From an uncultured bacterium (GTDB lineage: Bacteria > Patescibacteriota > Minisyncoccia > Phycocordibacterales > CAIZLB01): a stretch of 64,000 bases of DNA. The first letter of the stretch is position 1, and the number at the start of each line of letters is the position of its first letter. The stretch is taken from assembly GCA_903821355.1 (NCBI GenBank), contig CAIJKW010000022.1, positions 423 through 64,422 on the forward strand. The letters are read 5' to 3'. Below, one piece after another: positions 1,453 to 28,908 of this stretch. A model generated the notes under the pieces. It did not search any database and had not been told where the DNA came from. It was given only the letters and a program-made list of their open reading frames with translations. A program made the position numbers and the translations under genes.

Positions 1453-2727
1453 CTAATGCGCGACACCTGAACCTATAGTTGTAATTTGCAGATTCTTTGG
1501 TGTGAAAGAATCCAGCTCTATATATGAAGGTATCTTTATATTGTCTTTATTGATTGTGATGTTATTTTCTCCAGCATTAAACTTACTTGCATCAACTATG
1601 GCGTGAACATCTTCCTGTTTTAAATTAGCAACATCTTTATTGCTTCCCATAACAGTTATTTTTACTGTGCTCTGAGAGTTTGCACTAATTGTCATATCCG
1701 ATTTTAGATATTTGAATTCTACTGGAACAGAATATGTATTTTTTACAACACCCGCTGTATAGACAAGAAAGAACCAAAACAATACAGATAAAACTAAGGC
1801 AATAATTTTTGTAGTACTATTTTTAATCAGAAAATAATGTGCTAAGCCCTTCGATTTATTTGAAGAATCAACTTCGTCATCGGCAAACTTATGAATTATG
1901 TTTGCTAATTCTTCAGGTGTCGCAATCTTTTTAAGATTGCCGTCTTGCGAAACAGAAACTTCACCTCTTTCTTCTGAGACAACAATCGCGAGCGCGTCAG
2001 TTTTTTCTGTTATTCCAGCTGTGGCACGATGTCTTGTTCCAACTCTACTGTACTCCGTAAATTCACGCGCCAAAGGCAGGTGAAGTCCAAACATCTTAAT
2101 TCTAGAGCCTTCAATGAGCATGGCGCCATCGTGTCCGGGAGATGTCGGATCAAAGATGCTCAAAATAAGCGGTCTGGAGATTTGACCATCAAGAGGAAAG
2201 CCGCCCTCGATAAGATCATCCAGTGGATACTGACCAGGTAGAACAATTATTGCGCCTATTCTCTGTTTTGCCATATCAAAAACTGATCTAACGATTGTCT
2301 GTGTATTTTCTTCGGGAAGAGAAAGAGCCTTAGCAAAAGTTGTTTTTCTGCCAGCACTAAACCATTTGAAAAACTTTCTGATTTCCGGCTGAAAGACGAC
2401 GACAAAAATCGCAATAAAAAAGGTAAGTAGCGGTTCAAAAATTTGTCTAGTCAATGCAAGGTCAAATTTCTGAGAAATAAAATTTATACCTAGGAGAATG
2501 ACGATGGCGCTAAATATAAAATTTGATCTAGTTTGCTTAATAAAAATTAGAACGAGGTAAATACAGGCGGCGACAATTATTATGTCAAAAATATCCCTCA
2601 CTGATATTGAGAGAAGGGTAGATGTAACCTGACTTGGTAATGACCATAGACCCGCCATTAAATCCGTTGAATTTGGTAGATTATTGAACATATACTTTTT
2701 TATAACATATTTCCTTATATCAGACAA
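1453..2727 (-). CDS. cdaA: Diadenylate cyclase CdaA (DisA_N domain) fused to a C-terminal YbbR/CdaR-like domain
   Basis: N-terminal TM helices, then the DAC domain (TRHRATAGITEKTDALAIVVSEERGEVSVS; DGAMLIEG). C-terminal roughly 150 aa YbbR-like beta-rich repeat region after an extra TM. Alternative internal starts at 2691 or 2658. Confidence 0.75.
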   Translation of the reverse strand: MSDIRKYVIKKYMFNNLPNSTDLMAGLWSLPSQVTSTLLSISVRDIFDIIIVAACIYLVLIFIKQTRSNFIFSAIVILLGINFISQKFDLALTRQIFEPLLTFFIAIFVVVFQPEIRKFFKWFSAGRKTTFAKALSLPEENTQTIVRSVFDMAKQRIGAIIVLPGQYPLDDLIEGGFPLDGQISRPLILSIFDPTSPGHDGAMLIEGSRIKMFGLHLPLAREFTEYSRVGTRHRATAGITEKTDALAIVVSEERGEVSVSQDGNLKKIATPEELANIIHKFADDEVDSSNKSKGLAHYFLIKNSTTKIIALVLSVLFWFFLVYTAGVVKNTYSVPVEFKYLKSDMTISANSQSTVKITVMGSNKDVANLKQEDVHAIVDASKFNAGENNITINKDNIKIPSYIELDSFTPKNLQITTIGSGVAH

Positions 2728-2828
2728 CAGTTATTGACTTTTTGGAAATTTCATGTAGTGTTGTAAGCGGACTTTCTGTCCAGTCACACAATAATCCAGA
2801 TTCAACCCCACAGAAAAAACAAAGAACA

Positions 2829-3722
2829 ATGAAAACAAAAACAACAATCGGGGGCTTTATCGCCCTCCTCTTTGCTGCCGCTTCGGCGACGGCAACACCG
2901 CCGCCGCTACCACCAACAGTGGTTGTGAAAGCAGCCATCGTTGTCAACGGGTCGCCAACCTCAACCACCGTCGCCACCTTGCCAGCAAAGGTGACCGTGG
3001 CTGATGTTGGTCTCAGTCAGATCGTCCATCTTGGTACGGGCCTGCAGTTTGAGTTCCAAGACTCAGCAGGACACCCTGTCAACGTGGATGGTTTCAAGGC
3101 CGCCAAGGCAGAGCACTCACTCATCGGCAACGGCACCGCATTCTGGACAAATACCCCATTGGGGTCTTTTCATCCAGATGACCAAGGGTCACCGGATTAT
3201 CATGTCTACAACGCCTCTGGCGCTGACGTGACTCCGTCCTCTGGTTTTGTTACCGGCTACATGGGCGATAATTCGGGAGCAGTTCTGCCTCCGATGTCCA
3301 GGTTCCAGGTCCTAGACCAGACGATTACGCTTGGAGGTACATCAGGCCGTCCGCTGCTCGCTGCCGCTGGCAATTACTACAGCTTCACTTACACTTGGGT
3401 CTTTTCGTACTCCTACGGGGGCACGACTTACACCAAGACACTGTCGTCATCCGACACAGAGGTGATGGTTCAAGTGGTTGCTGGGTTGCCGGACTTTTTC
3501 AAGGGAGAGGAGGGGGTTGTCCCCCCATGTCTCATTCACCTTGAGGTAAGTGAGAACCTTGCCGATTGGGTTATTCCTCCCGGCGTGGTGATTCCAAACC
3601 CTCGTCCGACGAATATTTTGAATATCGTTGACCTGCTGAAATCAACCTCAGCTTTTTCAGGCCAAACAAACGGCGGCGTCACCCGATTCTACAGATACGT
3701 TCAGAGCCCAATTCTGCCGTAG
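2829..3722 (+). CDS. Secreted protein of unknown function, GC-rich (likely horizontally acquired)
   Basis: Start chosen at MKTKTTIGGFIALLFAAASA, a signal-peptide-like N-terminus. Pro/Thr-rich linker. The ORF is markedly GC-rich relative to its flanks. Confidence 0.5.
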   Translation: MKTKTTIGGFIALLFAAASATATPPPLPPTVVVKAAIVVNGSPTSTTVATLPAKVTVADVGLSQIVHLGTGLQFEFQDSAGHPVNVDGFKAAKAEHSLIGNGTAFWTNTPLGSFHPDDQGSPDYHVYNASGADVTPSSGFVTGYMGDNSGAVLPPMSRFQVLDQTITLGGTSGRPLLAAAGNYYSFTYTWVFSYSYGGTTYTKTLSSSDTEVMVQVVAGLPDFFKGEEGVVPPCLIHLEVSENLADWVIPPGVVIPNPRPTNILNIVDLLKSTSAFSGQTNGGVTRFYRYVQSPILP

Positions 3723-3749
3723 ATGTGAATGGAATCGGCTGGATCCAGT

Positions 3750-3790
3750 CACGGAAACGCCCGTGCCCCAAGTGGGTGCGGGTGTTTTTT
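3750..3790 (+). terminator. GC-rich hairpin cluster followed by a T-run
   Basis: cacgg-aaacgc-ccgtg hairpin plus GC-rich stem, then gtgtttttt. Confidence 0.4.
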
Positions 3791-3863
3791 CTATAATTTT
3801 TTCTTGACATTTTAATTTTAATCTGGTACCATCATGTGATTAGAAAAGTTATAAATCATTATT

Positions 3864-4832
3864 ATGTTTACAAAAAATATTAAAGTAATCGCCTGTTCAG
3901 CACTCATATTGGGCTCATCATTGTTTCTTTTGATGATAATCTTTGGTGTGTCAGGCGTAAATGCGGCATCGGGTTCGGATTCAGAAACAACTGACACAAC
4001 ATCAGTGGTTGTAGAAAACTCATACACTCTATGCCATGATGGTATGGACAATGACAACAACGGAACAACAGACATGGGAGACAGAAACTGTTCAAATTTT
4101 ACTACAGCACCAGCTACAACAACTGATACAACATCATTAGTTGTAGAAAACTCATACTCTCTATGTCATGATGGTATGGACAATGACAACAATGGAACAA
4201 CAGATATGGGAGACAGAAATTGTTCCAACTTTGTTTCAATAGCAACTCCAGAACTTGACACAACATCAGTGGTTGTAGAAAACTCATACACTCTATGCCA
4301 TGATGGTATGGACAATGACAACAACGGAACAACAGACATGGGAGACAGAAATTGTGCAGGTCACGATACAAGACCAGCTACTACAACACCTCAAAACCCA
4401 GTTATAATATCAACAGGTGGTGGAAGTAGTTCTTCAGGAAGTTATCTACCAGGCTTTGGAGGTCTATCCACTGGATCAGTTTTGGGTGCAGCTATTGATA
4501 CAGAGTCTACATCGACATCTTGCGATAGCCTATTTAAAACTTTCATGAGAAAGGGATACAAGAATAACAAAGCGGAAGTTATTAAATTACAAAAATTCTT
4601 GAATACAGAGCTTAATATAAAATTACCTGTAACAGGAACTTTTGGTTCACTGACTGACAAGGCGGTAAGAGAGTTTCAACTGAAGAAGGCAAATATAGTT
4701 TTGGTTCCTTGGGTTAAGGCAGGTCTTATGAAGAACATAACTTCTACCGGATACTTCTATAGAACAACTCAATTTGCAGCAAATCAAATATTATGTCCAA
4801 GCACGGTAGTTGATGCTCCAATCTTGAAATAA
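3864..4832 (+). CDS. Secreted tandem-repeat protein: three MopE-like Cys/Asp motifs plus a C-terminal PG_binding_1-like domain
   Basis: Signal peptide. Three 44-aa repeats TTSVVVENSY(T/S)LCHDGMDNDNNGTTDMGDRNC. C-terminus KLQKFLNTELNIKLPVTGTFGSLTDKAVREFQ matches the peptidoglycan-binding domain pattern. Confidence 0.6.
   Translation: MFTKNIKVIACSALILGSSLFLLMIIFGVSGVNAASGSDSETTDTTSVVVENSYTLCHDGMDNDNNGTTDMGDRNCSNFTTAPATTTDTTSLVVENSYSLCHDGMDNDNNGTTDMGDRNCSNFVSIATPELDTTSVVVENSYTLCHDGMDNDNNGTTDMGDRNCAGHDTRPATTTPQNPVIISTGGGSSSSGSYLPGFGGLSTGSVLGAAIDTESTSTSCDSLFKTFMRKGYKNNKAEVIKLQKFLNTELNIKLPVTGTFGSLTDKAVREFQLKKANIVLVPWVKAGLMKNITSTGYFYRTTQFAANQILCPSTVVDAPILK
3996..4391 (+). repeat. Three tandem 132-bp direct repeats inside the CDS
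   Basis: Units start near 3996, 4128 and 4260. Units 1 and 3 are nearly identical at nucleotide level; unit 2 has diverged. Confidence 0.85.
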
Positions 4833-4961
4833 CAAGAATATCTAAAAAGATGTAAGGAATCTTAAAAAACAAAAAACTATCCGTAAGGGTGGTTTTTTGT
4901 TATAATGTCGATATCGAAAGTATTTGTGAATAATTAATAAAAACAAAGAAAATTCGTCAAA

Positions 4962-5912
4962 ATGAAAAAACTAATAAGAAAAACTTTTATACACAGAAAT
5001 GAAAAGATGCCATATTTGTGGACCGGAGCCGGAGTTTCTATTTTGTCAGTAGTTATTTTGGCTCTTGTCGTCTTTGCTCAGTTTCATCAATATATTTTTC
5101 TAAAAATTAATCACGGACTTTCAGGTTCAGTAATTAATTCTGTTGTGGTTGATATGACAAATCAAGAAAGAGCTTCACTTGGATTAGGCGAACTAAAGAC
5201 CAACGAAGCACTAAGAAAAGCCGCTCAAGCAAAAGCGGATGACATGGCCAAGAGCGGGTATTTTGCACATCAGAGTCCAGACGGAAAAACTCCATGGTAT
5301 TGGATAGATCAGACTGGCTATACTTACAAAGCGGCGGGGGAGAACTTGGCAGTGAATTTTGACTATTCAAGGGATGTTGTAAATGCTTGGATGAATTCGC
5401 CAACACACAAAGCTAATATCGTTAAAGCAAAATATCAAGAAATTGGAATAGGAATTGCAGAAGGTTTTTATCTTGGTCGCCCAACAGTTTTTGTTGTGCA
5501 GATGTTTGGAACACCAAAAGGGGATATCGGATTTGGCAACGCACCAACTTTGACGATGAATACAACCGCGACAGCAAATGTGTCAACCACCACCGCTGTA
5601 GCTACAACCAGCACAACGACGACTGCCGTGGCGGGCGCAACAGCCATCTCGACAACAAAAGTCTTGGGCGCTTCTTTTGACACCATCTCTCTTTACGATT
5701 TACTTTTCTCTGGAAAAATCAGGACTATCGTATTAAGCACCATCATAATACTAATTATTTTGGTTCTTCTCCTTGCTCTCACAAATCCAAACGGTAAGAT
5801 GATTGTTAAGATTGCCAAAATGGCCTTAATTCCTTTAACTATACTTTTGATTGCCTATATTGTCCTAATTCTGAAGAGTGGCACAGCGGAAAGTAGCTTT
5901 CTGGAGTTCTAA
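4962..5912 (+). CDS. CAP/SCP/PR-1 (YkwD-like) domain protein, with N-terminal TM, Thr-rich linker and C-terminal TM
   Basis: NQERASLGL...ALRKAAQAKADDMAKSGYFAHQSPDGKTPW...GENLAVNF...AWMNSPTHKANIV matches the CAP domain consensus. TATAAT at 4903-4908. Confidence 0.65.
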   Translation: MKKLIRKTFIHRNEKMPYLWTGAGVSILSVVILALVVFAQFHQYIFLKINHGLSGSVINSVVVDMTNQERASLGLGELKTNEALRKAAQAKADDMAKSGYFAHQSPDGKTPWYWIDQTGYTYKAAGENLAVNFDYSRDVVNAWMNSPTHKANIVKAKYQEIGIGIAEGFYLGRPTVFVVQMFGTPKGDIGFGNAPTLTMNTTATANVSTTTAVATTSTTTTAVAGATAISTTKVLGASFDTISLYDLLFSGKIRTIVLSTIIILIILVLLLALTNPNGKMIVKIAKMALIPLTILLIAYIVLILKSGTAESSFLEF

Positions 5913-6034
5913 TTAAGTGTTTCTGACATTTAAGTATTGACAATATTAACATAATATGCCAATATATGGTCTGACATCGGAGGTCTTTGTCAGTCTGTTA
6001 TTCTAGTTTCAACTCAAACAATTCACAACCAAAA

Positions 6035-6241
6035 ATGAAACCGCGAGATATTGTAATTGCAGTGGGTGGTGCATGTATTGTGTGCTACTTTATCATCCTA
6101 GGTGGCAACGCGTGGCTCTATAACCACGCCAGCCATGAGTCAATCAAAGCACTCCTTCCAAAGGAGAATATAATCACCCCGGCAAAAGCGCCTAACAAGG
6201 CGCCGTCGGTGGAAGTATCAGAAATCATCAGGCAGCACTAG
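6035..6241 (+). CDS. Small membrane protein (68 aa)
   Basis: Start chosen at MKPRDIVIAVGG, internal to ORF 5987..6241. One TM helix. Followed by an intrinsic terminator. Confidence 0.4.
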   Translation: MKPRDIVIAVGGACIVCYFIILGGNAWLYNHASHESIKALLPKENIITPAKAPNKAPSVEVSEIIRQH

Positions 6242-6265
6242 CCAAAACAATTAGTGTAGGATTCG

Positions 6266-6299
6266 TTGGCGCCGGCAATTCTGCCGGCGCCTTTTGTTG
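6266..6299 (+). terminator. Rho-independent terminator
   Basis: ggcgccggca-attc-tgccggcgcc perfect 10-bp stem, then TTTTGTTGT. Confidence 0.8.
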
Positions 6300-6370
6300 T
6301 ATCAAAAATGTTTGATGGACAAAATCGTCAAAAGTTATAAACTTAAAGCCTTACAAATTTAAATACAAAC

Positions 6371-7132
6371 ATGGACTTAACATTTATAATAGTAGTTATC
6401 GTAGTAATTCTTTTGACGATGTCACTTAAAGTCGTAAAAGAATATGACAGAGGCGTCATCTTTTTCCTAGGAAAAGTGACTGGTGTTCGCGGGCCTGGAC
6501 TTATCATCCTCATCCCAATTTTTGAGCAGATGACAAAGGTGTCGCTTAGAACAATTACGATGAGCATTCCTTCGCAAAAAATTATTACAAAAGATAATGT
6601 TTCAATTGATATCGCGGCGGTTGCGTATTATCACATTTTGGATCCGCAGAAGTCAGTTGTTGCAATTGAAGATGTTTATAGTGCAGTTAATCAAATTAGT
6701 CAGACAACGGTTAGAAATATCGTTGGGCAATTTGAGCTGGATCAATTGTTGCAAAAGACGGGGCAAATTAATGTGCAGATTAAGGAAGTGATCGATATTC
6801 ATACAGAGCCATGGGGAATTCAAGTTACTGCTGTTGAGATTAAAGACATTACTTTGCCTGACAATATGCAAAGAGCGATGGCCAAGGAGGCGGAGGCTGA
6901 GCGTGAGCGTCGTGCCAAGATTGTTGCGGCTGAAGGAGAGTTCCAAGCTGCGGTTAAGCTTTGCGAGGCGGCAGATCTAATTTCCGCGCATCCTGTTGCA
7001 CTACAATTGCGCACTCTTCAGACGATGGCGGAAATCTCCGTGGAAAAGAACTCGACAATCATTTTCCCTGCGCAGTTTATGACGACGGTGAGCGAGGCGA
7101 TTTCCATGATTAGAGGTGATGTGAAGAAATAG
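6371..7132 (+). CDS. SPFH/band-7 (stomatin-like) membrane protein
   Basis: N-terminal TM. VKEYDRGVIFFLGK...PSQKIITKDNVSIDIAAVAYY...AKEAEAERERRAKIVAAEGE is typical of stomatin/prohibitin family. Confidence 0.85.
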   Translation: MDLTFIIVVIVVILLTMSLKVVKEYDRGVIFFLGKVTGVRGPGLIILIPIFEQMTKVSLRTITMSIPSQKIITKDNVSIDIAAVAYYHILDPQKSVVAIEDVYSAVNQISQTTVRNIVGQFELDQLLQKTGQINVQIKEVIDIHTEPWGIQVTAVEIKDITLPDNMQRAMAKEAEAERERRAKIVAAEGEFQAAVKLCEAADLISAHPVALQLRTLQTMAEISVEKNSTIIFPAQFMTTVSEAISMIRGDVKK

Positions 7133-7172
7133 GCGGGTGGTGCGGGATGGAGAACAGATAGGGTTGGTTAAA

Positions 7173-7201
7173 CAAAGGGCGCCGTGAGGCGTCTTTTTTG
7201 T
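7173..7201 (+). terminator. Probable intrinsic terminator
   Basis: aagggcgcc-gtga-ggcgtcttt hairpin with G-U pairs, then TTTTTTG. Confidence 0.5.
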
Positions 7202-7208
7202 CAAAAAC

Positions 7209-7268
7209 TAGTGAATGACAGGTTGTTTTAACCCTCCATTCACTAAAAAATGGCAAAATTTAGTGAAT
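7209..7268 (+). promoter_or_regulatory. Three-arm element able to form two mutually exclusive hairpins
   Basis: Arm A tagtgaatg (7209-7217) and arm C tttagtgaatg (7258-7268) are both complementary to the central arm B cattcactaaa (7237-7247). Confidence 0.3.
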
Positions 7269-7539
7269 GAGAAGTAAAGACGAGAGACGTCCAGTGGATT
7301 TTTGTCTGTTTTTGTTTTGTCTGTAATATTTTTGCTTCTCGTTCGTTTTATTAAATATCACAAGCTCATCCCAGTGCTATACACTGTGTAAGGCTAGGGT
7401 AATTTAGTGAGCGACCCAGTAGGTCATCCTGCTGGATGACATGCACTTTAGAGCCGACTCATGGTTGTAATACCATGAACCCATATGTCAAAGCTTTATA
7501 TTGATGTATAGACTAGATATATTGCTGGGTAATATTGTC

Positions 7540-7572
7540 AAAACAGAGACGCTTAGGTGTCTCTGTTTTGCA
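7540..7572. terminator. Bidirectional intrinsic terminator
   Basis: aaaacagagac-gcttaggt-gtctctgtttt: 11-bp stem flanked by an A-run and a T-run. Confidence 0.6.
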
Positions 7573-7636
7573 TATTATGTAGAGTTTTTTTACATCAAGC
7601 TTAAACTTTTTTACGTTTCTTAATATATTTATATCA

Positions 7637-8146
7637 ATGATTACTAATGAAAAAAAAGAAAAAGAGGAATCTCCAGATTATGAAAAGTATAAACAAATGA
7701 TATTGGCTTTTTTGCGACTGGAGAAAAGTATTACAAAAATAAAGTTTGCCAAGCTATTATATTTTGCTGATTTTGCATGGTTTTATAACAATCTCAAAAG
7801 TATGAGTGGAATGCAATATAGAAAAATTCAACAATATGGTCCTATTGCTGATTCGTACTTTAGAATTGTCGATGAGATGTATGACCAAGGTGAAATAAGA
7901 ATTAATCACATAAAAGACGGTGCAACACTCATCTCTTCAACCAGAAGTGGAGATATGATGTATTTGCATAAAATTGCAAAAGCAGAATTCGCCTTAATCA
8001 AAAAAATAGAAAAAAAGTGGAAAGATGAAAAGACTTCTGAAATAGTCGATTTTACTCGCAAACAACTGCCTTTTCTACTGGCACATGAAAATGAAATAGT
8101 ATCATACGATGTATTTGGTCAAGAAGATCCTGATAAAATATTTTAG
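7637..8146 (+). CDS. Panacea (DUF4065, SocA-like antitoxin) domain protein
   Basis: KFAKLLYFADFAWFYNNLKSMSGMQYRKIQQYGPIADSYFRIVDEM matches the Panacea/SocA consensus (KLqKLLYFa...W..yGPv...Y). Confidence 0.55.
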   Translation: MITNEKKEKEESPDYEKYKQMILAFLRLEKSITKIKFAKLLYFADFAWFYNNLKSMSGMQYRKIQQYGPIADSYFRIVDEMYDQGEIRINHIKDGATLISSTRSGDMMYLHKIAKAEFALIKKIEKKWKDEKTSEIVDFTRKQLPFLLAHENEIVSYDVFGQEDPDKIF

Positions 8147-8333
8147 TTGTTTATACGAGCTTTTTTTCTCAAATTGACTTTTGAATTCAGTGGATATATA
8201 ATCTCAGTAGAAGTATGCAATAATAGCTTTTCAGGCGCTTGAGTGTTCCCTCAGAGGATCTGGGGTATAAATGATAAATCATTTATGTAGCTTAAGAACA
8301 CCGCCTGACTAGACGCTACTTCTAACAAAGTAA

Positions 8334-8356
8334 GTCTGCTTGGCAGGCTTTTTTTG
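8334..8356. terminator. Terminator shared by the convergent genes
   Basis: gtctgc-ttg-gcaggc hairpin followed by TTTTTTTGTT. Confidence 0.6.
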
Positions 8357-8394
8357 TTAGTATTAAAATGTTTTTATATAAGTATTCATTGTAT

Positions 8395-9042
8395 TTATTC
8401 TGCAAAAAATTCCCTTCCTTTATCTAAAAAATTATTTTTTAATATTTTAAAATATTCTCCACCATCCTTACCTTCCTCCAGATATCTGAAAATTGCTCCA
8501 GAAATCCAGTCTGCAATTTGTATGTTTGTATTTGAAGTAGAATCAATCATGTGTACTTGAATCATGGTTTCAGCAGAACATAGAGGTAAAAGCTTCCCTG
8601 TAATATGCGATTCAAATTCACTTTTAGACATGTCTTTTAATGATCTTTGATCACAGAATATATAAATCTCTTTTTCGTCCGTAGGTAAATATGTCCCAAG
8701 TGTCTCAGCAATAATATTTGCGTATAAAATACCGCTATCTAATTTTCCCTTCCTTCTATATTTACTCGGTATATTATTTATTGATAAAAAACCATATCTG
8801 ATACGAACGTCCATATTTGAGATGTATTTAACTGTATGAATGCGAAGTTTATCAGCAATTCCTGTTGCAGACCATTTGATTTCACCTTGCTTCCGCATCT
8901 TTTTTGGAAACTTACTGTTTATCCAAGCTTTAAAAGCTTTTGCGGTAGCCTTCTGATTACTTACAGTAAAAGAGCCGATCACGAAATATTCTTCATGATT
9001 ATGTTTTGTAAAATTTCCACTTTCATCTAAAAATATGTACAT
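8395..9042 (-). CDS. DUF3800 family protein
   Basis: N-terminal MYIFLDESGNF and C-terminal NIQIADWISGAIFR match the DUF3800 hallmarks (YiDESG ... QlADlia). Confidence 0.6.
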   Translation of the reverse strand: MYIFLDESGNFTKHNHEEYFVIGSFTVSNQKATAKAFKAWINSKFPKKMRKQGEIKWSATGIADKLRIHTVKYISNMDVRIRYGFLSINNIPSKYRRKGKLDSGILYANIIAETLGTYLPTDEKEIYIFCDQRSLKDMSKSEFESHITGKLLPLCSAETMIQVHMIDSTSNTNIQIADWISGAIFRYLEEGKDGGEYFKILKNNFLDKGREFFAE

Positions 9043-9357
9043 AAAATTTATAAAATAAGTTTCCCAAGGTCTTCATAGAGGTAAACCAAAAATCAATGTC
9101 TTAACCTTCTAGTTTGAAATTTTGCAGGCCTTAAAATACCCTTATTTCTGAGAGTTTGCCATTAATCTTAAAAATTCAGCTTTAGTGCCCCTAAAACCCC
9201 TCAGTGATTTTTTTGATATTTTTTTCTTTTTCATAATGACACATAATACAGATGAGACATGATACCTTTATAAAGAGAATCTAAAGAATTACCAACATTT
9301 TTCTTTGGTATTTTAGTAGTGTTGTGGATAAGTCATTTATATGGCAATATTTATTGT

Positions 9358-9705
9358 ATGGACCCTATAAAAAGACTAACTAAAAAGATAGTGGCGTTTA
9401 GAAACAGGAGAAATTGGAAACAATTTCACAACCCAAAAGATTTATCAATATCGTTGGTTCTAGAAGCAACAGAACTGATGGAACATTTTCAATGGAAGAA
9501 TACACAGGAGACAGAAGAATATGTTAAGAAAAATAAAGCAGAAATATCAGAAGAAATAGCGGATGTTTTATATTATATCTTATTAATTTCTCACGACATG
9601 AAAATTGATGTAGAAAAAGCTTTAGATAGGAAGATTGAAATAAATGACAAAAAATATCCTGTAGAAAAATCAAAAGGTAATCATACTAAATATAATAAGT
9701 TATAA
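9358..9705 (+). CDS. MazG-like nucleoside-triphosphate pyrophosphohydrolase (all-alpha NTP-PPase)
   Basis: KKIVAFRNRRNWKQFHNPKDLSISLVLEATELMEHFQW...EEIADVLYYILLIS is the MazG/YpjD-like EExxE/D core. Stop is 2 nt before the next start. Confidence 0.6.
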   Translation: MDPIKRLTKKIVAFRNRRNWKQFHNPKDLSISLVLEATELMEHFQWKNTQETEEYVKKNKAEISEEIADVLYYILLISHDMKIDVEKALDRKIEINDKKYPVEKSKGNHTKYNKL

Positions 9706-9707
9706 AA

Positions 9708-11576
9708 ATGATAGTATACTCTAAGCAGAAAATTGACTTTAAAAAAGATATCATGTCCAATAATATTGGTAATATTATTTTAGACAACTACAAAAGAGTT
9801 ACTGGCAGAAATACAGGGAAATCAGAATTTGATTCTTGGACAAATTCATTACAATATATGGAGAGAGTTTTATCAGATTCAGAAATTCCTGATGATGCCG
9901 GTATCGCTATTGAGTATCATATTCCTCAGTCATCAAAGAGGGTAGATTTTATAATTACAGGTTCTGATTCTGAAAAAAATGAATCCGCTATTTTAATAGA
10001 ATTAAAACAATGGCAGACAGCCAAGCTTACAGAAAAAGACGCTGTCGTTATTACTAGATTTAAAGGAGGGGAACAAGAGACGACACATCCTTCATATCAG
10101 GCCTGGTCCTACAAAAGGTTACTTGAAGATTTCAATCAAACTGTAGATGAAGATAAAATCCAACTATTTCCTTGTGCGTATCTTCATAACTATGATTCTG
10201 ATAACGTAATAGATAATGATTTTTATGGTGAATACACAAATAACGCTCCTCTGTTCTTAAAACCTGATGCAGTTAAATTGCAGGATTTTATAAAAGCACA
10301 TGTTAAACATGGAGACAAGAGTCGAATAATGTTTCGGATAGATAATGGTAAAATTCGACCGTCAAAAAGTTTAGCTGATCAATTAAGCTCTATGTTGTTT
10401 GGCAATACAGAGTTTACAATGATTGATGATCAGAAAATTGTATACGAGACAGCTATTAATCTGGCAAAGACATCGCATGAAAATAATAAAAACGTTCTGA
10501 TTGTTCAAGGCGGTCCAGGAACCGGTAAGTCTGTGGTCGCTATAAATTTACTTGTAGCGCTGACTAATCTTCCTGAAAATAGACTTGTGACTCAATATAT
10601 AACTCGTAATTCTGCCCCAAGAGCTGTCTATGAAGCTAAATTAACTGGAAGCCATAAAAAATCTCACATTACAAATATGTTTAGTGGTTCAGGATCTTTT
10701 CATTCAGTTAAATCAAATATTTTTGATGCGTTAATAGTGGATGAAGCCCACAGACTTAATGCTAAGTCTGGAATGTTTAGTCACTTAGGTGAAAATCAGG
10801 TTAAGGAAATAATTAATGCTTCAAAATTTAGTGTATTTTTTATTGATGAAGATCAAAAGGTCACACTTAAAGATATTGGTGATACAGAAGAAATTAAAAA
10901 ATATGCAAAACAACTTAATGCGAATGTCGTTGATATGACCCTAGAATCACAATTTAGATGTAATGGTTCAGACGGGTATTTGGCTTGGTTGGATGATGTG
11001 CTTCAGATAAGACAAACTGCAAATAATTCTTTGAAAGAACTGAATTACGACTTTAAGATATTTGATGATCCTCAAAAAATGCACGATGAAATAGTTGAAA
11101 AAAATAAAGAAAAGAACAAAGCTCGTGTTGTTGCTGGGTATTGTTGGAAGTGGATTAGTAAAAACAGGCCCGTGCTTAAAGATATCGTGATAGGTAATTA
11201 TAAAGCTACCTGGAATTTGAATGAAGATGGGCAAGCGTGGATTATTAAACCTGAATCTGTAACAGAAGTTGGATGCATACACACATGTCAGGGATTAGAG
11301 GTCGATTATGTCGGTGTGATTATAGGAAAAGATTTGATAGTTAGAGATGATGTAATTAAGACCGTACCAGAAGAGCGAGCAAGTACGGATAAATCTGTAC
11401 ACGGGTGGAAGAAGATGTTTAAAGAAAATCCAGAAGAGACTCTGAGAAAACTAGATTTGATAATAAAAAATACTTATAGAACTTTAATGACTAGGGGAAT
11501 GAAAGGATGTTACGTATATTTCGAGGATAAAGAAACTGAGAAATATTTTAGAGAAAGACTGTCTTTTATAGAATAA
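9708..11576 (+). CDS. N-terminal PD-(D/E)xK nuclease-like domain fused to a DUF2075 (Nhi/Schlafen-helicase-like) P-loop ATPase
   Basis: N-terminus has VDFIITG...AILIELKQW (D ... ExK). Walker A is VQGGPGTGKSVVAIN and Walker B is ALIVDEAHRL. C-terminus GYCWKW...CIHTCQGLEVDYVGVIIG is typical of DUF2075 proteins. Confidence 0.65.
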   Translation: MIVYSKQKIDFKKDIMSNNIGNIILDNYKRVTGRNTGKSEFDSWTNSLQYMERVLSDSEIPDDAGIAIEYHIPQSSKRVDFIITGSDSEKNESAILIELKQWQTAKLTEKDAVVITRFKGGEQETTHPSYQAWSYKRLLEDFNQTVDEDKIQLFPCAYLHNYDSDNVIDNDFYGEYTNNAPLFLKPDAVKLQDFIKAHVKHGDKSRIMFRIDNGKIRPSKSLADQLSSMLFGNTEFTMIDDQKIVYETAINLAKTSHENNKNVLIVQGGPGTGKSVVAINLLVALTNLPENRLVTQYITRNSAPRAVYEAKLTGSHKKSHITNMFSGSGSFHSVKSNIFDALIVDEAHRLNAKSGMFSHLGENQVKEIINASKFSVFFIDEDQKVTLKDIGDTEEIKKYAKQLNANVVDMTLESQFRCNGSDGYLAWLDDVLQIRQTANNSLKELNYDFKIFDDPQKMHDEIVEKNKEKNKARVVAGYCWKWISKNRPVLKDIVIGNYKATWNLNEDGQAWIIKPESVTEVGCIHTCQGLEVDYVGVIIGKDLIVRDDVIKTVPEERASTDKSVHGWKKMFKENPEETLRKLDLIIKNTYRTLMTRGMKGCYVYFEDKETEKYFRERLSFIE

Positions 11577-11583
11577 TAATTGG

Positions 11584-12273
11584 ATGATTCCAACCCTCCT
11601 AAAATTAAAAAGAAAAATAAACAAACTAAGGCGGTCCATCAAAACCGCTCGCACCTCTCGTCCTGCCCGCCCAATCAAAACCTCAGAAAATCAAATCACG
11701 CTCAAGGGACAAAATGTTCCGTACGTCCTTCGCTTAAACCCTCGATCCAAATCTATTCGTCTTGCAATTCATTCGGGTGGGGAATTTACGGTGACAGCGC
11801 CGCCTAGGGTGACGCAGAAAATGATTGAGCATTTTATCGAGCTGAAAGCGGATTGGATACTGGAAAAGATTGCGCATTTTAAAAAGTTTGATTTGGCGCG
11901 CGGATCCGGGTCGCAAGCGTCGGCGCCGAGAAAAACTAAAGCACAGCAACGCGCGGAATATTTGGCTCTTAAAGATAAGGCGCTCAAAATTGCTACAGAA
12001 AAAGTTCTACATTGGAATGCCTTCTACAATTTTAAATTCAACAAAATCAGTATCAAAAATCAAAAAACCAGATGGGGGAGTTGTTCCAAAAATGGGAATC
12101 TGAATTTCAATTACAAAATTGCGCTTCTGCCTGAAAATTTGGCGGACTATCTTGTTGTGCACGAGATTGCACACCTCGGCCAATTTAATCACTCGGCAAA
12201 ATTTTGGGCGCTTGTAGCACAAACAATTCCGGATTATCAGACGCTTAGAAAAGAATTGAAGGGAGTTAAATAA
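11584..12273 (+). CDS. YgjP-like metal-dependent hydrolase (DUF45, WLM/M48-like HExxH)
   Basis: C-terminal LADYLVVHEIAHLGQFNHSAKFWALV contains the HEIAH zinc motif of the DUF45/YgjP family. Starts 7 nt after the preceding gene. Confidence 0.7.
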   Translation: MIPTLLKLKRKINKLRRSIKTARTSRPARPIKTSENQITLKGQNVPYVLRLNPRSKSIRLAIHSGGEFTVTAPPRVTQKMIEHFIELKADWILEKIAHFKKFDLARGSGSQASAPRKTKAQQRAEYLALKDKALKIATEKVLHWNAFYNFKFNKISIKNQKTRWGSCSKNGNLNFNYKIALLPENLADYLVVHEIAHLGQFNHSAKFWALVAQTIPDYQTLRKELKGVK

Positions 12274-12293
12274 ATGAATAAATAAGTAGAGTA

Positions 12294-12316
12294 GAATTTT
12301 TGCACGTGGTATAATA
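12294..12316 (+). promoter_or_regulatory. Extended -10 promoter (TGgTATAAT) for the TspO gene
   Basis: tgcacgtggtataata immediately upstream of the start at 12322. Confidence 0.5.
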
Positions 12317-12321
12317 ACTAC

Positions 12322-12720
12322 ATGAACAATACCTACAACTGGTACTCGCAACTTATAAAACCAAGGTGGTCTCCACCAAGCTATCTTTTTGGCCCCGTCT
12401 GGAGCGTACTGTACATAATAATTGCAGCAAGCTTTGGAACGGTCTTTTACAAAGCATTCACAAAACAAATTCCTTGGATTGTGGCTCTACCCTTCATCCT
12501 TAACTTAATCTTCAATTTTGCTTTTACTCCGCTTCAATTTGGCTTAAAAAATAATTTACTGGGCGCCATTGATATCCTCTTAGTACTTGGAACATTAATT
12601 TGGGCGATAATTGCAATCTACCCATACGTTAAATGGGTTGCTTATATTCAAACTCCATATTTGCTTTGGGTTACTTTTGCTACCGTCTTGCAATTGACGA
12701 TTACATATTTGAATAGATAG
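12322..12720 (+). CDS. TspO/MBR (tryptophan-rich sensory protein) family membrane protein
   Basis: WYSQLIKPRWSPPSYLFGPVWSVLYIIIAASFG... is a Trp-rich multi-TM protein matching TspO N-terminal signatures. Confidence 0.6.
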   Translation: MNNTYNWYSQLIKPRWSPPSYLFGPVWSVLYIIIAASFGTVFYKAFTKQIPWIVALPFILNLIFNFAFTPLQFGLKNNLLGAIDILLVLGTLIWAIIAIYPYVKWVAYIQTPYLLWVTFATVLQLTITYLNR

Positions 12721-12840
12721 GGGATATATATCGAATACAAAAACTGCCATGTCGCCATATATATATGTGCACATTACCCGCACCTATTGACAATAACCAA
12801 TAGGCATGTTAGCATGTGTATGTGTTCGCACAAACCAAAT

Positions 12841-12992
12841 GCGCGACGTGGCACAGGACAGACCACTTAAGTCTCAATCCTGATATCGCGTGCGCGCGCA
12901 GTCCCGCAAAGCCGAAAGGCCGCTTGAGGGGACACAAAGGGGCTGTAATACGCCCAGCGTAAAGAGATCAAAAGGGGGAAACTTGCGGTTTG
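12841..12992 (-). ncRNA. Candidate structured small RNA of unknown family (GC-rich island in an AT-rich spacer)
   Basis: The segment is GC-rich with nested helices (GCC-GAAA-GGC GNRA hairpin; cagtccc/ggggctg helix). Minus-strand promoter TTGCTG-17nt-TATTAT at 13027-12999 points into it. No ORF of 60 aa or more other than GC-induced ones. Confidence 0.25.
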
Positions 12993-13197
12993 GATCGTAT
13001 AATAATAAGGATCCGTTAAAGCAGCAACAGTTAAGACTGTCATGATGTACGACAATTTGTTCTCGACAAGAGACAGACCGTGCACTTATGGGATTAAGCT
13101 TCCCGAAAGAAACCCCACTAATAACAAAGGTCTCAAAACCACCGTCCATGAATCAAGTAATGGGCGGTGTTTTTATTTGTATGTTAAAATAGGCGAC

Positions 13198-13707
13198 ATG
13201 AAAGCCAATAAAATAAGTATCGAAAACGCCAAGCAGGACAAGTTATTTTACTTTGTCGCTAATGTTGTTGTCTTCCGAGAATCTGACAAAAGATGTCTCA
13301 TCCTAAAAAGAAGCGAGTCTGAAAAAGTTCATCCTGGAAAATTTGCAGTCCCTGGTGGAAAGCTTGAGTGGAAGGACCTAGACATTACAAAGCCAACCAG
13401 AATGAATGGCGATGTGATAGATTTTGAAAACTCGGTTGAGGATCTTCTTAAAAGAGAAGTTATGGAAGAAGCAGGAATTGTAATCGATAATAAACTTCAT
13501 TATATAAATAGTGTAGCTTTTATTAGACCCGACGAGACTCCTGTCGTCCTCGTTAAATTTGCTGCAAAATATATCAGCGGAGACGTTGTGCCTGAGGCCG
13601 GCGCCTTTACTGATTTTGCATGGGTTAACGCAGAGGAAATTAAAAATTACGATTGTATACAAGGCGTCCATGAAGAGGTTGCTGAGACAATTAAGATATT
13701 TTGTTAA
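13198..13707 (+). CDS. NUDIX hydrolase
   Basis: GGKLEWKD...VEDLLKREVMEEAGI is a Nudix box (Gx5Ex7REVxEExGI). Start chosen at MKANKIS, internal to ORF 13042..13707. Confidence 0.7.
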   Translation: MKANKISIENAKQDKLFYFVANVVVFRESDKRCLILKRSESEKVHPGKFAVPGGKLEWKDLDITKPTRMNGDVIDFENSVEDLLKREVMEEAGIVIDNKLHYINSVAFIRPDETPVVLVKFAAKYISGDVVPEAGAFTDFAWVNAEEIKNYDCIQGVHEEVAETIKIFC

Positions 13708-28008: not shown

Positions 28009-28908
28009 ATGAACCCCATTTTCATCCAAAAAGCAGATGGAACCAGTGAAGAATTTGACATAGTGAAACTTAAGGAATCATTGGTTAAATCTGGTGCTCA
28101 ACCAACTGTTACAGACAAAATAATCAGAAAAATAACGGAAGACTTAAAGGCTAAGTCAGAAAAGATGGGCAAGAAAGCAGTTTGTGATGCTACCCAGATA
28201 TACAAACAAGCTTTTGCAATGCTAAAGAAGATGTCAATTTCTGCGGCGGCTAGATACTCGTTAAGAAGATCAATAATGGAAATAGGCCCAACGGGTTTTC
28301 CGTTTGAAGACTTTGTTGCGGAAATATTTAAAGCGCAAGGCTATCAAACATTAACAGATCAAATGGTTTTGGGAAAATGTGTTCCTCATGAAGTTGATGT
28401 AATAGCTTGGAATGAACAAAAGCTACTTATGGCGGAGGTTAAATATCATAACGAGTTAGCAGGCAAAACTGATTTAAAAGTTGCTTTATACGTTAAAGCA
28501 AGATTTGATGATTTATCACAAAACAAATATCAATATACGGAAGGAGTTCCCGCAAGAAAGTTAGATGAGGGATGGCTTGTCACAAACACAAAATTTACTG
28601 AATCGGCCATAAATTATGGTGAATGTAGCAAGATGAAACTATTAAGTTGGAATTATCCACAAGAGGGAAATCTTCTGGATTTAATAGAAAAAAACAAACT
28701 ACATCCCGTAACTTGTTTAACGTCCTTAACAGCACTAGACAAGAAATCTCTAATTGGAAGAAAAATTCTTTTATGTAAGGAGCTGTATGATAGCAAAAAA
28801 TCTATGAAAGAGTTGGGTATGTCAGAAGCTAAAATATTTAAAACTTATTCTGAAATTGGAACAATTTTTGGAGAATTAGATGGTGTCGAGGTAGCTTTGA
28901 ACTCTTAG
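28009..28908 (+). CDS. ATP-cone domain fused to a Mrr/restriction-endonuclease-like (PD-(D/E)xK) domain
   Basis: N-terminus MNPIFIQKADGTSEEFDIVKLKESL is ATP-cone-like. FEDFVAEIFKAQGYQ...HEVDVIAWNEQKLLMAEVKYH...WLVTNTKFTESA matches the Mrr_cat pattern. Confidence 0.55.
   Translation: MNPIFIQKADGTSEEFDIVKLKESLVKSGAQPTVTDKIIRKITEDLKAKSEKMGKKAVCDATQIYKQAFAMLKKMSISAAARYSLRRSIMEIGPTGFPFEDFVAEIFKAQGYQTLTDQMVLGKCVPHEVDVIAWNEQKLLMAEVKYHNELAGKTDLKVALYVKARFDDLSQNKYQYTEGVPARKLDEGWLVTNTKFTESAINYGECSKMKLLSWNYPQEGNLLDLIEKNKLHPVTCLTSLTALDKKSLIGRKILLCKELYDSKKSMKELGMSEAKIFKTYSEIGTIFGELDGVEVALNS

Follow-up and report, generated by a model that had tools for sequence, protein, structure and literature searches.

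What does a Panacea antitoxin domain do beside a DUF3800 gene when no toxin gene adjoins it? The question is raised by a 64,000-nucleotide stretch of contig CAIJKW010000022.1 from an uncultured bacterium of the Patescibacteriota (hereafter the window), in which a Panacea-domain gene and a DUF3800 gene converge with 248 bp between the two stop codons. An earlier note on this DNA had read the two genes, with the MazG/DUF2075/DUF45 operon downstream, as a small defence island. We found that the 248-bp gap, whose content that note overlooked, holds a small RNA (sRNA) gene, and that this sRNA, not Panacea, is the constant partner of DUF3800. We consider it likely that Panacea on the one hand and DUF3800 with its sRNA on the other are two independent modules that became neighbours through insertion and not through function.

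The sRNA gene belongs to a family that is already in Rfam. The match to the DUF3800-V RNA (RF02964) scored 65.6 bits against a gathering score of 37.4 (E 1.7e-12) and spanned model positions 1–96 of 96, which identifies the window’s RNA as a member of the known DUF3800-V motif. This was the sole Rfam family matched in the whole 64-kb window, and ARAGORN found no tRNA or tmRNA gene there. DUF3800-V is one of 11 RNA motifs next to DUF3800 genes that were described by Weinberg et al. 2017 (PMC5737381), in whose main text no specific functional hypothesis was obvious to the authors; our literature search found no later functional study of DUF3800-associated RNAs.

The predicted structure of the RNA is a rod-like hairpin in which the 5′ end pairs with the 3′ end and in which three internal loops (GCAAUAAUA, GUGUUCC and AGACGCU) are near-invariant. 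A covariance model of our own, built from 53 aligned RNAs of related loci, scored the window’s copy at 87.8 bits. Compensatory changes were seen in 20 of the 33 pairs across the aligned RNAs, and 96.9% of the paired cells in the alignment could pair, compared with 40–50% in controls with slid partners; none of 500 shuffles reached the observed pairing values. This covariation supports a conserved sRNA fold. An extra 20-nt hairpin (AUAAAUGAU-AAA-UCAUUUAU), which also forms in the single-sequence fold, is carried by 13 of the 53 aligned RNAs, in the window’s subclade only.

The sRNA also comes with transcription signals of its own. Its promoter is of the sigma-70 type, matches the consensus at 11 of 12 positions, was the best site between 7100 and 9400 in a promoter scan, and has a −10 hexamer that ends 6 nt upstream of the RNA 5′ end. 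A TTGACa/TAtAaT pair stands at equal distance in nearly all related loci, despite unrelated surrounding sequence. On the other side, the terminator is predicted to work in both directions and so to be common to the sRNA and the convergent DUF3800 mRNA; the succession of A-tract, hairpin and T-tract recurs in most aligned loci, about a dozen of the extracted spacers being too short to show it. The predicted transcript (8209–8358) has a folding energy of −53.8 kcal/mol (z −4.9). With its own promoter, and with only the terminator in common, the sRNA is probably a transcript of about 150 nt that is independent of the DUF3800 mRNA and strongly expressed. Panacea transcripts may in addition read through into the RNA, since the window has no terminator between the Panacea stop codon and the RNA.

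How constant this association is was examined in 80 loci from GTDB genomes (L003–L082), which were found by protein search through DUF3800 orthologues 41–81% identical to the window’s protein, together with two added contigs of a near-identical relative (L001 and L002), for a total of 82 loci. All of the 80 are from Patescibacteria (the candidate phyla radiation, CPR), and most contigs in the sample are short metagenomic pieces. By nhmmer with a single sequence as query, 79 of the 82 loci already gave an RNA match. With the covariance model, it was present in all 81 loci that have sequence downstream of the DUF3800 gene, across proteins 41–91% identical; the locus left out of this count, L027, is on a contig that ends at the gene. 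Each locus has a single RNA, always on the strand opposite to DUF3800, with its 3′ end 31–85 nt from the stop codon (72 nt in the window). Because the loci were selected by protein, the statement that the DUF3800 gene never occurs without the RNA is robust; the frequency of RNA-only copies is outside the scope of such a sample.

Around the pair, little is constant. The 140 open reading frames (ORFs) that flank it in 78 loci fall into 120 clusters, of which 107 are singletons. The largest cluster, HsdM, covers seven loci (L006, L009, L018, L019, L024, L050 and L073) in which hsdM ends 2–11 nt before DUF3800, and in three of the seven HsdS lies beyond the RNA, so that the pair is then within a type I restriction-modification operon. 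Other neighbours are RhuM, integrase, nucleotidyltransferase, NYN, Bro-N and GIY-YIG proteins and housekeeping genes; a MazG and DUF2075 pair is found alongside in six loci, in varying arrangement. Even L003, whose DUF3800 protein is 81% identical, has only 8197–9053 in common with the window. No direct repeats were evident at the borders. Together, these data show that 8174–9042 is a self-contained cassette of ~0.9 kb that moves as a unit into unrelated contexts, and that the MazG-like, DUF2075 and DUF45 genes belong to a variable block and not to the DUF3800 unit. The window (9043–9077) and L003 both have what appear to be the last codons of an hsdM gene (...LG..*) just before the DUF3800 start, which hints at the cassette’s origin.

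The Panacea gene has a history of its own. The domain call in the earlier note was borne out (PF13274, 29.5 bits against a cutoff of 25.7, E 1.5e-6), with the match covering residues 38–143 of the 169-aa protein; the full-length relative P0128 scores 44.3 bits against the same profile. Nearly all of the 1109 homologues that we detected are ~224 aa long and have an N-terminal XRE-type helix-turn-helix (HTH) domain (HTH_3) ahead of the Panacea domain, and it is HTH_3 that the window’s protein lacks. A gene for a ~130-aa partner comes next downstream in 62 of the 67 Panacea loci with enough downstream sequence (tblastn), mostly overlapping the HTH-Panacea gene by 4 nt or starting within 5 nt of it. 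HTH-Panacea and partner thus resemble a classic antitoxin–toxin bicistron, in which the position of the partner points to a toxin role.

The partner family has invariant residues CKTEFKI.G..SR..SGNRCI (alignment A5; L168 5721–6107 and 66 other loci) and no match in Pfam, NCBIfam, PADLOC or the PDB. These proteins probably make up a PanT toxin family of Patescibacteria that has not been described before. A RelE-like core, suggested by eye, was not supported, as profile comparison with E. coli RelE gave a probability of 0.3%. Two statements of the earlier note about the surroundings of Panacea stood up as well. There is no toxin gene beside it, searches of the window and of the DUF3800 loci having yielded no homologue of the ~130-aa partner; and the short ORF that overlaps a hairpin upstream (7501–7623, TTG start, 40 aa) is not a gene, because indels disrupt its frame in the 89%-identical relative L001, which also rules it out as a hidden toxin.

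The contig L168, with the order CAP, Band_7, HTH-Panacea (237 aa), 128-aa partner, MazG-like and DUF2075, shows what the window lineage would have started from. Compared with it, the window keeps the ancestral Panacea ATG and has 56 HTH codons deleted in frame; a tblastn search with eight N-terminal HTH regions found no HTH remnant upstream of Panacea, only the in-frame start region being matched. The partner gene of L168 (5714–6139), which MazG directly follows, is replaced by window 8146–9077, that is, by the RNA promoter, the RNA, the terminator and DUF3800. By this alignment, the window’s Panacea is an HTH-deleted, partner-less derivative of the HTH-Panacea antitoxin family, and in the window lineage the DUF3800–sRNA cassette now occupies the former place of the partner gene, a putative toxin.

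Traces of the older arrangement appear to remain upstream. Positions 4867–4932 of L168 correspond to window 7203–7268 at 91% identity, and synteny with both L168 and L001 breaks at 7268. Of the three TAGTGAATG copies here, the third lies in L168 and L001 between TTGACA and TAATAA/TATAAT, immediately ahead of the leader hairpin; the window has ATGGCA as the −35 at this copy. We infer that 7209–7269 is a remnant of the ancestral Panacea promoter/operator region, and the TAGTGAATG repeats may have been the operator of Panacea’s now lost HTH. The hairpin at 7539–7570 is kept with compensatory changes in L001 and is also present in L168, where it comes right after the promoter; this position makes a role as 5′ leader or attenuator in the Panacea mRNA more probable than one as terminus of an upstream gene.

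Since the cassette sits at the site of the lost partner, and since Panacea domains switch toxins (PMC8832971), a Panacea–DUF3800 relationship newly evolved in the window lineage has to be weighed against independence. Panacea would then be the antitoxin of the convergent DUF3800 protein in a newly recruited PanA–PanT pair, much as other Panacea domains partner with dozens of unrelated toxins (PMC8832971). The purifying selection on Panacea described below, despite the loss of its original toxin, would suit such a pair, as would the RNA or cassette that lies downstream of Panacea in three separate loci (the window lineage, L156 and L157). The distribution of the two genes, however, speaks against it. 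The sole Panacea match among L003–L082 is a distant one in L060 (23% identity, ~4.5 kb away), and a Panacea gene adjoins DUF3800 otherwise only in L001 and L002, of the window’s own lineage. Among 80 Panacea loci, a DUF3800 unit is nearby only in L157 and in the same-lineage L083, with the RNA alone in L156. L157 retains its own 128-aa partner between Panacea and DUF3800, and in L167 a same-clade, HTH-less Panacea is followed directly by DUF45, with no RNA, DUF3800, MazG or DUF2075 adjacent. In addition, the genes face each other across an RNA gene and a terminator, which is not a bicistronic layout, and the RNA is already the universal partner of DUF3800. We regard a Panacea–DUF3800 pair as extremely improbable; the few co-occurrences of Panacea and cassette fit insertion into a common hotspot.

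That both the HTH domain and the partner gene were lost might mean that the 169-aa ORF is a decaying remnant without function. The ratio of nonsynonymous to synonymous substitution rates (dN/dS) is at odds with this, at 0.19 for the comparison with L001 and 0.12 for that with L167 (dS ~1.1), which is another copy without HTH and partner. Four contigs carry the ORF intact, and the deletion, clean and in frame, left the ancestral start codon in place. Decay is thus very unlikely: as judged by these ratios, the shortened gene is under purifying selection, and the remaining Panacea domain is probably kept as a free-standing antitoxin.

The last toxin of Panacea might also have been a different one, namely a Fic protein lost from upstream rather than the ~130-aa protein. 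L001 and L083 (89–90% nucleotide identity) have a 298-aa Fic gene on the same strand as Panacea, between the ancestral Panacea promoter and the leader hairpin, at the site where the window has a 259-bp insert (7269–7527) that is absent from L168; a Fic/Doc–Panacea pair has been experimentally validated (PMC8832971). Against this, tblastn found no Fic remnant in the window, the same-clade L167 is also without Fic, and a terminator-like hairpin separates Fic from Panacea. The Fic protein further has a SNAIEN motif (S-x-x-x-E-N), which we take to resemble the built-in inhibitory helix of class II Fic proteins, so that it may not need an antitoxin. We therefore think it unlikely that Fic was the toxin that was lost.

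With Panacea set apart, the question becomes what DUF3800 and the sRNA do together. Here too the earlier domain call was sound: PF12686 matched the 215-aa protein with 66 bits against a cutoff of 21 (E 7.9e-18), over the full-length profile (1–149). An AlphaFold2 model from 23 orthologues (predicted local distance difference test, pLDDT, 90.2; predicted template modelling score, pTM, 0.88) returned archaeal RNase HII as all of its top 12 Foldseek matches in the PDB, with E 8e-6 to 7e-4 and template modelling (TM) scores of 0.45–0.59. The best of these were 1eke and 3p83 (E 8e-6, TM 0.54–0.59), and 1i39 was also among the 12; a PDB search by sequence gave no meaningful match. The fold of the modelled protein is RNase HII-like. 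Residues D6 and E7 (DESG motif), D131, Q175 and D178 (QIADW) are invariant in the 23 orthologues, and the predicted active site looks intact because D6, E7, D131 and D178 are among them. RNase H2-like predictions for DUF3800 proteins beside retrons and Cas12 agree with the model (PMC7736814, PMC10910872), and PADLOC matches the protein to the candidate system PDC-M04A (E 1e-9).

We tentatively favour, with somewhat less than even confidence, a reading in which the sRNA binds and restrains the DUF3800 nuclease, and in which release of the nuclease on RNA loss aborts infection. The abundant sRNA would bind the RNase HII-like nuclease through its conserved internal loops and, in the manner of an RNA antitoxin, keep it from acting. 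If the RNA were lost or titrated away, as might happen on shut-off of host transcription by a phage, the nuclease would be released, and the freed enzyme would attack RNA/DNA-hybrid or other A-form substrates, so that the infection is aborted. Restraint is suggested first by the asymmetry of the pair, as the nuclease never occurs without the RNA and the RNA does occur without the nuclease (in L156 and L164). It is suggested further by the supply of the RNA, whose promoter is near consensus, whereas DUF3800 often has no promoter of its own.

The two RNA-only loci bear on this reading. In the host locus L156 (4533–5640), the RNA is intact together with its promoter and terminator, its stem being preserved by a compensatory change, and a 317-aa RhuM-family gene takes DUF3800’s usual place; RhuM fragments flank the cassette also in L008 and L011. 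The other locus, L164 (IMG/VR UViG 3300033064_004864), is a contig of a tailed phage, on which the RNA (630–728, 58 bits) lies 7 nt upstream of terL (735–2102), with a portal gene at 2423–4477. Its loops are kept and its stems covary, and no DUF3800 gene is present in the 7.9 kb. A phage would profit from carrying an inhibitor of the nuclease, not an activator, so the RNA of L164 may be an anti-defence decoy, and phages would counter the DUF3800 system by carrying the RNA alone, as L164 does. The phage case is a single one (n=1). Neither the RNA nor DUF3800 had a match among GenBank phages, and two viral contigs picked up by a looser DNA pattern (L165 and L166) were set aside as chance matches, lying within coding regions and having no covariance-model match.

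Several points weigh against restraint by the RNA. The idea of an inhibitor draws on the two RNA-only cases and on analogy, and the defence activity of DUF3800 is a candidate annotation (PDC-M04A; PMC10910872, PMC7736814). The analogy is with type III toxin–antitoxin systems, from whose layout the locus departs. The RNA here is a single structured hairpin of 96–115 nt where those systems have a tandem repeat array, and it is convergent with a promoter of its own where theirs lies upstream in the same operon.

A serious rival, though one that we think rather unlikely, is that the sRNA is an obligatory cofactor or scaffold that activates or targets a DUF3800 ribonucleoprotein nuclease. The 100% linkage and the strongly conserved internal loops would be expected of a cofactor, RNase H-fold enzymes often work with nucleic-acid partners, and DUF3800 is joined to CRISPR effectors and to retrons, both of them systems centred on RNA (PMC10910872, PMC7736814). 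Variation in the RNA, however, is limited to covarying stems and the optional hairpin, which leaves no variable single-stranded segment fit for a guide, an absence that favours restraint; and a phage with the RNA alone, such as L164, is hard to reconcile with activation of a host nuclease.

The convergent layout raises another alternative, in which the sRNA is an antisense regulator of DUF3800, acting, like those of convergent type I toxin–antitoxin loci, where the transcripts overlap at their 3′ ends or through transcriptional interference. The two transcripts would indeed be complementary over the common terminator (~35 nt). The conserved, covarying part of the RNA, however, is outside any overlap, and predicted pairing of the sRNA with the DUF3800 5′ region was no stronger for cognate than for non-cognate combinations (means −28.4 and −28.0 kcal/mol, p 0.53). 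DUF3800 is moreover a 215-aa enzyme and not a small membrane toxin. Antisense control is, in our judgement, quite unlikely, and restraint of the nuclease by the sRNA remains the reading that we prefer.

How supply of the restraining RNA might be controlled is suggested by its promoter. An exact DnaA-box 9-mer (TTATCCACA, in either orientation) abuts the sRNA −35 in 31 of 78 loci (examples are L156 5629–5637 and L006 ~6874–6882), and 31 of the 42 exact boxes in 696 kb sit beside an sRNA −35. When one mismatch is allowed, a box is found at the sRNA promoter in 39 of 81 loci, compared with 1.3% of random 45-nt windows. The window’s own RNA promoter does not have one. This enrichment suggests control of the sRNA by DnaA or by some other protein that recognises this site; the 9-mer, present at about half of the promoters, would tie RNA supply to replication status. 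Taken as a whole, the proposal that DUF3800 and its sRNA are an unrecognised class of RNA–protein toxin–antitoxin or abortive-infection module, countered by RNA-only phages and linked through DnaA to replication, is possible but on balance doubtful.

As a separate observation, an exact DnaA-box 9-mer (TGTGGATAA) also lies at window 9323–9331, with the start codon of the MazG-like gene 35 nt downstream. It is kept in L001 and L168 and is not found upstream of MazG in L007, L020, L047 or L076, which rules out a general feature of MazG genes and restricts it to the window’s own lineage. The remaining three exact boxes of the window lie at 28653, 56467 and 57098.

The wider neighbourhood (window 4962–13707) has the order CAP, Band_7, Panacea, DUF3800, MazG-like, DUF2075, DUF45, TspO and NUDIX by Pfam, in agreement with the MazG/DUF2075/DUF45 neighbours that had been described next to the Panacea–DUF3800 pair. 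The coordinates of the locus are collected in the table below.

Table. Features of the Panacea–DUF3800 locus, in window coordinates.
Feature	Position	Strand	Description
Three TAGTGAATG copies	7209-7217; 7238-7246 (inverted); 7261-7269	+	sequence
Lineage-specific insert or scar, 259 bp	7269-7527	.	blastn against L001 and L168
GC hairpin then T-run, 5′ of Panacea gene	7539-7570	+	terminator scan
Panacea-domain gene	7637-8146	+	169 aa; PF13274 SocA_Panacea
sRNA promoter	8174-8202	+	TTGACT, 17 nt, TATAAT
DUF3800-V sRNA core	8209-8323	+	Rfam RF02964
Optional hairpin within sRNA	8267-8286	+	insertion relative to Rfam model
Two-way intrinsic terminator	8324-8358	.	A-tract, GC hairpin, T-tract; terminator scan
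DUF3800 gene	8395-9042	-	215 aa; PF12686
Short 5′ flank of DUF3800 gene	9043-9077	-	arrived with cassette; blastn L168 against window
MazG-like gene	9358-9705	+	PF12643
DUF2075/SLFN-g3 helicase gene	9708-11576	+	PF09848, 362 bits
DUF45/YgjP-like gene	11584-12273	+	PF01863

Comparison with syntenic genomes supports a variable island between the conserved Band_7 and TspO genes. Six gene contents were seen in this interval. Apart from that of the window, they are Fic, Panacea, cassette, MazG and a different helicase (34% identical) in L001 and L083; Panacea then DUF45 in L167; HTH-Panacea, partner, MazG and so on in L168; Panacea then TspO in L087; and HTH-Panacea, partner and TspO in L117. L001 differs from the window by two extra genes, Fic between Band_7 and Panacea and KilA-N between CAP and Band_7 (L001 3400–4296 and 5465–6292, in the region related to window 5912–7636), and no KilA-N remnant was found in the window. 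The defence role that the earlier note had supposed is suggested by context and candidate-level matches only. PADLOC matched DUF2075 to PDC-S41 (1.5e-19), with weak Nhi/AbiO matches, at candidate level only, and gave no match for the Panacea, MazG-like or DUF45 proteins.

Two observations concern the flanks of the cassette. The MazG-like gene is 89% identical between the window and L001, and the helicase that follows it is 34% identical (L001 52–1002 against window 9708–11576); MazG dS, at 0.86, is four times that of Panacea or DUF3800 (~0.2). The contrast between the two neighbours and the fourfold higher dS of MazG suggest recombination within the block. Further upstream, the window has a 132-bp tandem repeat (3986–4355, 2.8 copies, 88% matches), which in L168 can be aligned to a portion of the 401-aa ORF that precedes CAP.

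The link between DUF3800 and structured RNAs has been a puzzle since 2017, and DUF3800 keeps turning up beside CRISPR effectors and retrons. The locus and its 81 relatives offer a compact test system of ~0.9 kb, comprising a nuclease gene, an sRNA whose promoter, ends and structure are defined, and a natural RNA-only phage copy, with which the idea that the RNA restrains the nuclease is directly testable. If the toxin–antitoxin class is real, it would give a function to eleven DUF3800 RNA motifs and a clue to the presence of DUF3800 beside Cas12a2/a3, Cas13 and type VII retrons. The Panacea synteny series, for its part, is a natural example of an antitoxin that appears to have lost its DNA-binding domain and its toxin while selection persists, and of a toxin slot that an unrelated cassette has come to fill.

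The RNA and both proteins belong to described families, and the locus adds to a known pairing. As in the published DUF3800-V motif, the window’s RNA adjoins a DUF3800 gene, and a Rho-independent terminator follows it, as is reported for several of the motifs (PMC5737381); nothing essential differs, the window’s subclade adding the 20-nt hairpin. The strict convergent geometry, the RNA promoter and the two-way terminator appear to go beyond the main text of the 2017 description, as do cassettes embedded in type I restriction-modification operons, copies of the RNA alone and the DnaA-box-like 9-mer at the RNA promoter. With PanA–PanT systems (Kurata et al. 2022, PMC8832971) the locus shares the Panacea domain, and full-length relatives have an N-terminal HTH, reported for many PanA proteins and optional in PanA generally, and a tightly coupled downstream partner. 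Unlike them, the window copy has neither HTH nor adjacent toxin, and the family’s ~130-aa partner matches no described family.

Type VII retrons, which combine reverse transcriptase, noncoding RNA (ncRNA) and DUF3800 (Mestre et al. 2020, PMC7736814), likewise tie a DUF3800 RNase H2-like protein to a structured ncRNA. No reverse transcriptase, however, is among the annotated genes of window 4962–13707, and where the retron proteins carry DEED and a QxxD motif without its Q, the window protein has D6, E7, D131 and Q175-x-x-D178. The seven related cassettes that follow hsdM at 2–11 nt recall latent nucleases of the PrrC/RloC type. A cassette inside a type I restriction-modification operon resembles prrC in the prr locus; the fold is different, the window copy lies outside any such operon, and the proposed silencer is an RNA and not the restriction-modification enzyme.

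The proposed logic is most like that of the type III toxin–antitoxin systems (ToxIN, CptIN and TenpIN), in which, as suggested here, a nuclease is held by an RNA encoded next to it. The locus fails the defining architecture of these systems, and its protein has an RNase HII-like fold in place of the ToxN/Kid-like one. The RNA-only copy of phage L164 would find its counterpart there too, as it resembles the phage-borne pseudo-ToxI escape from ToxIN.

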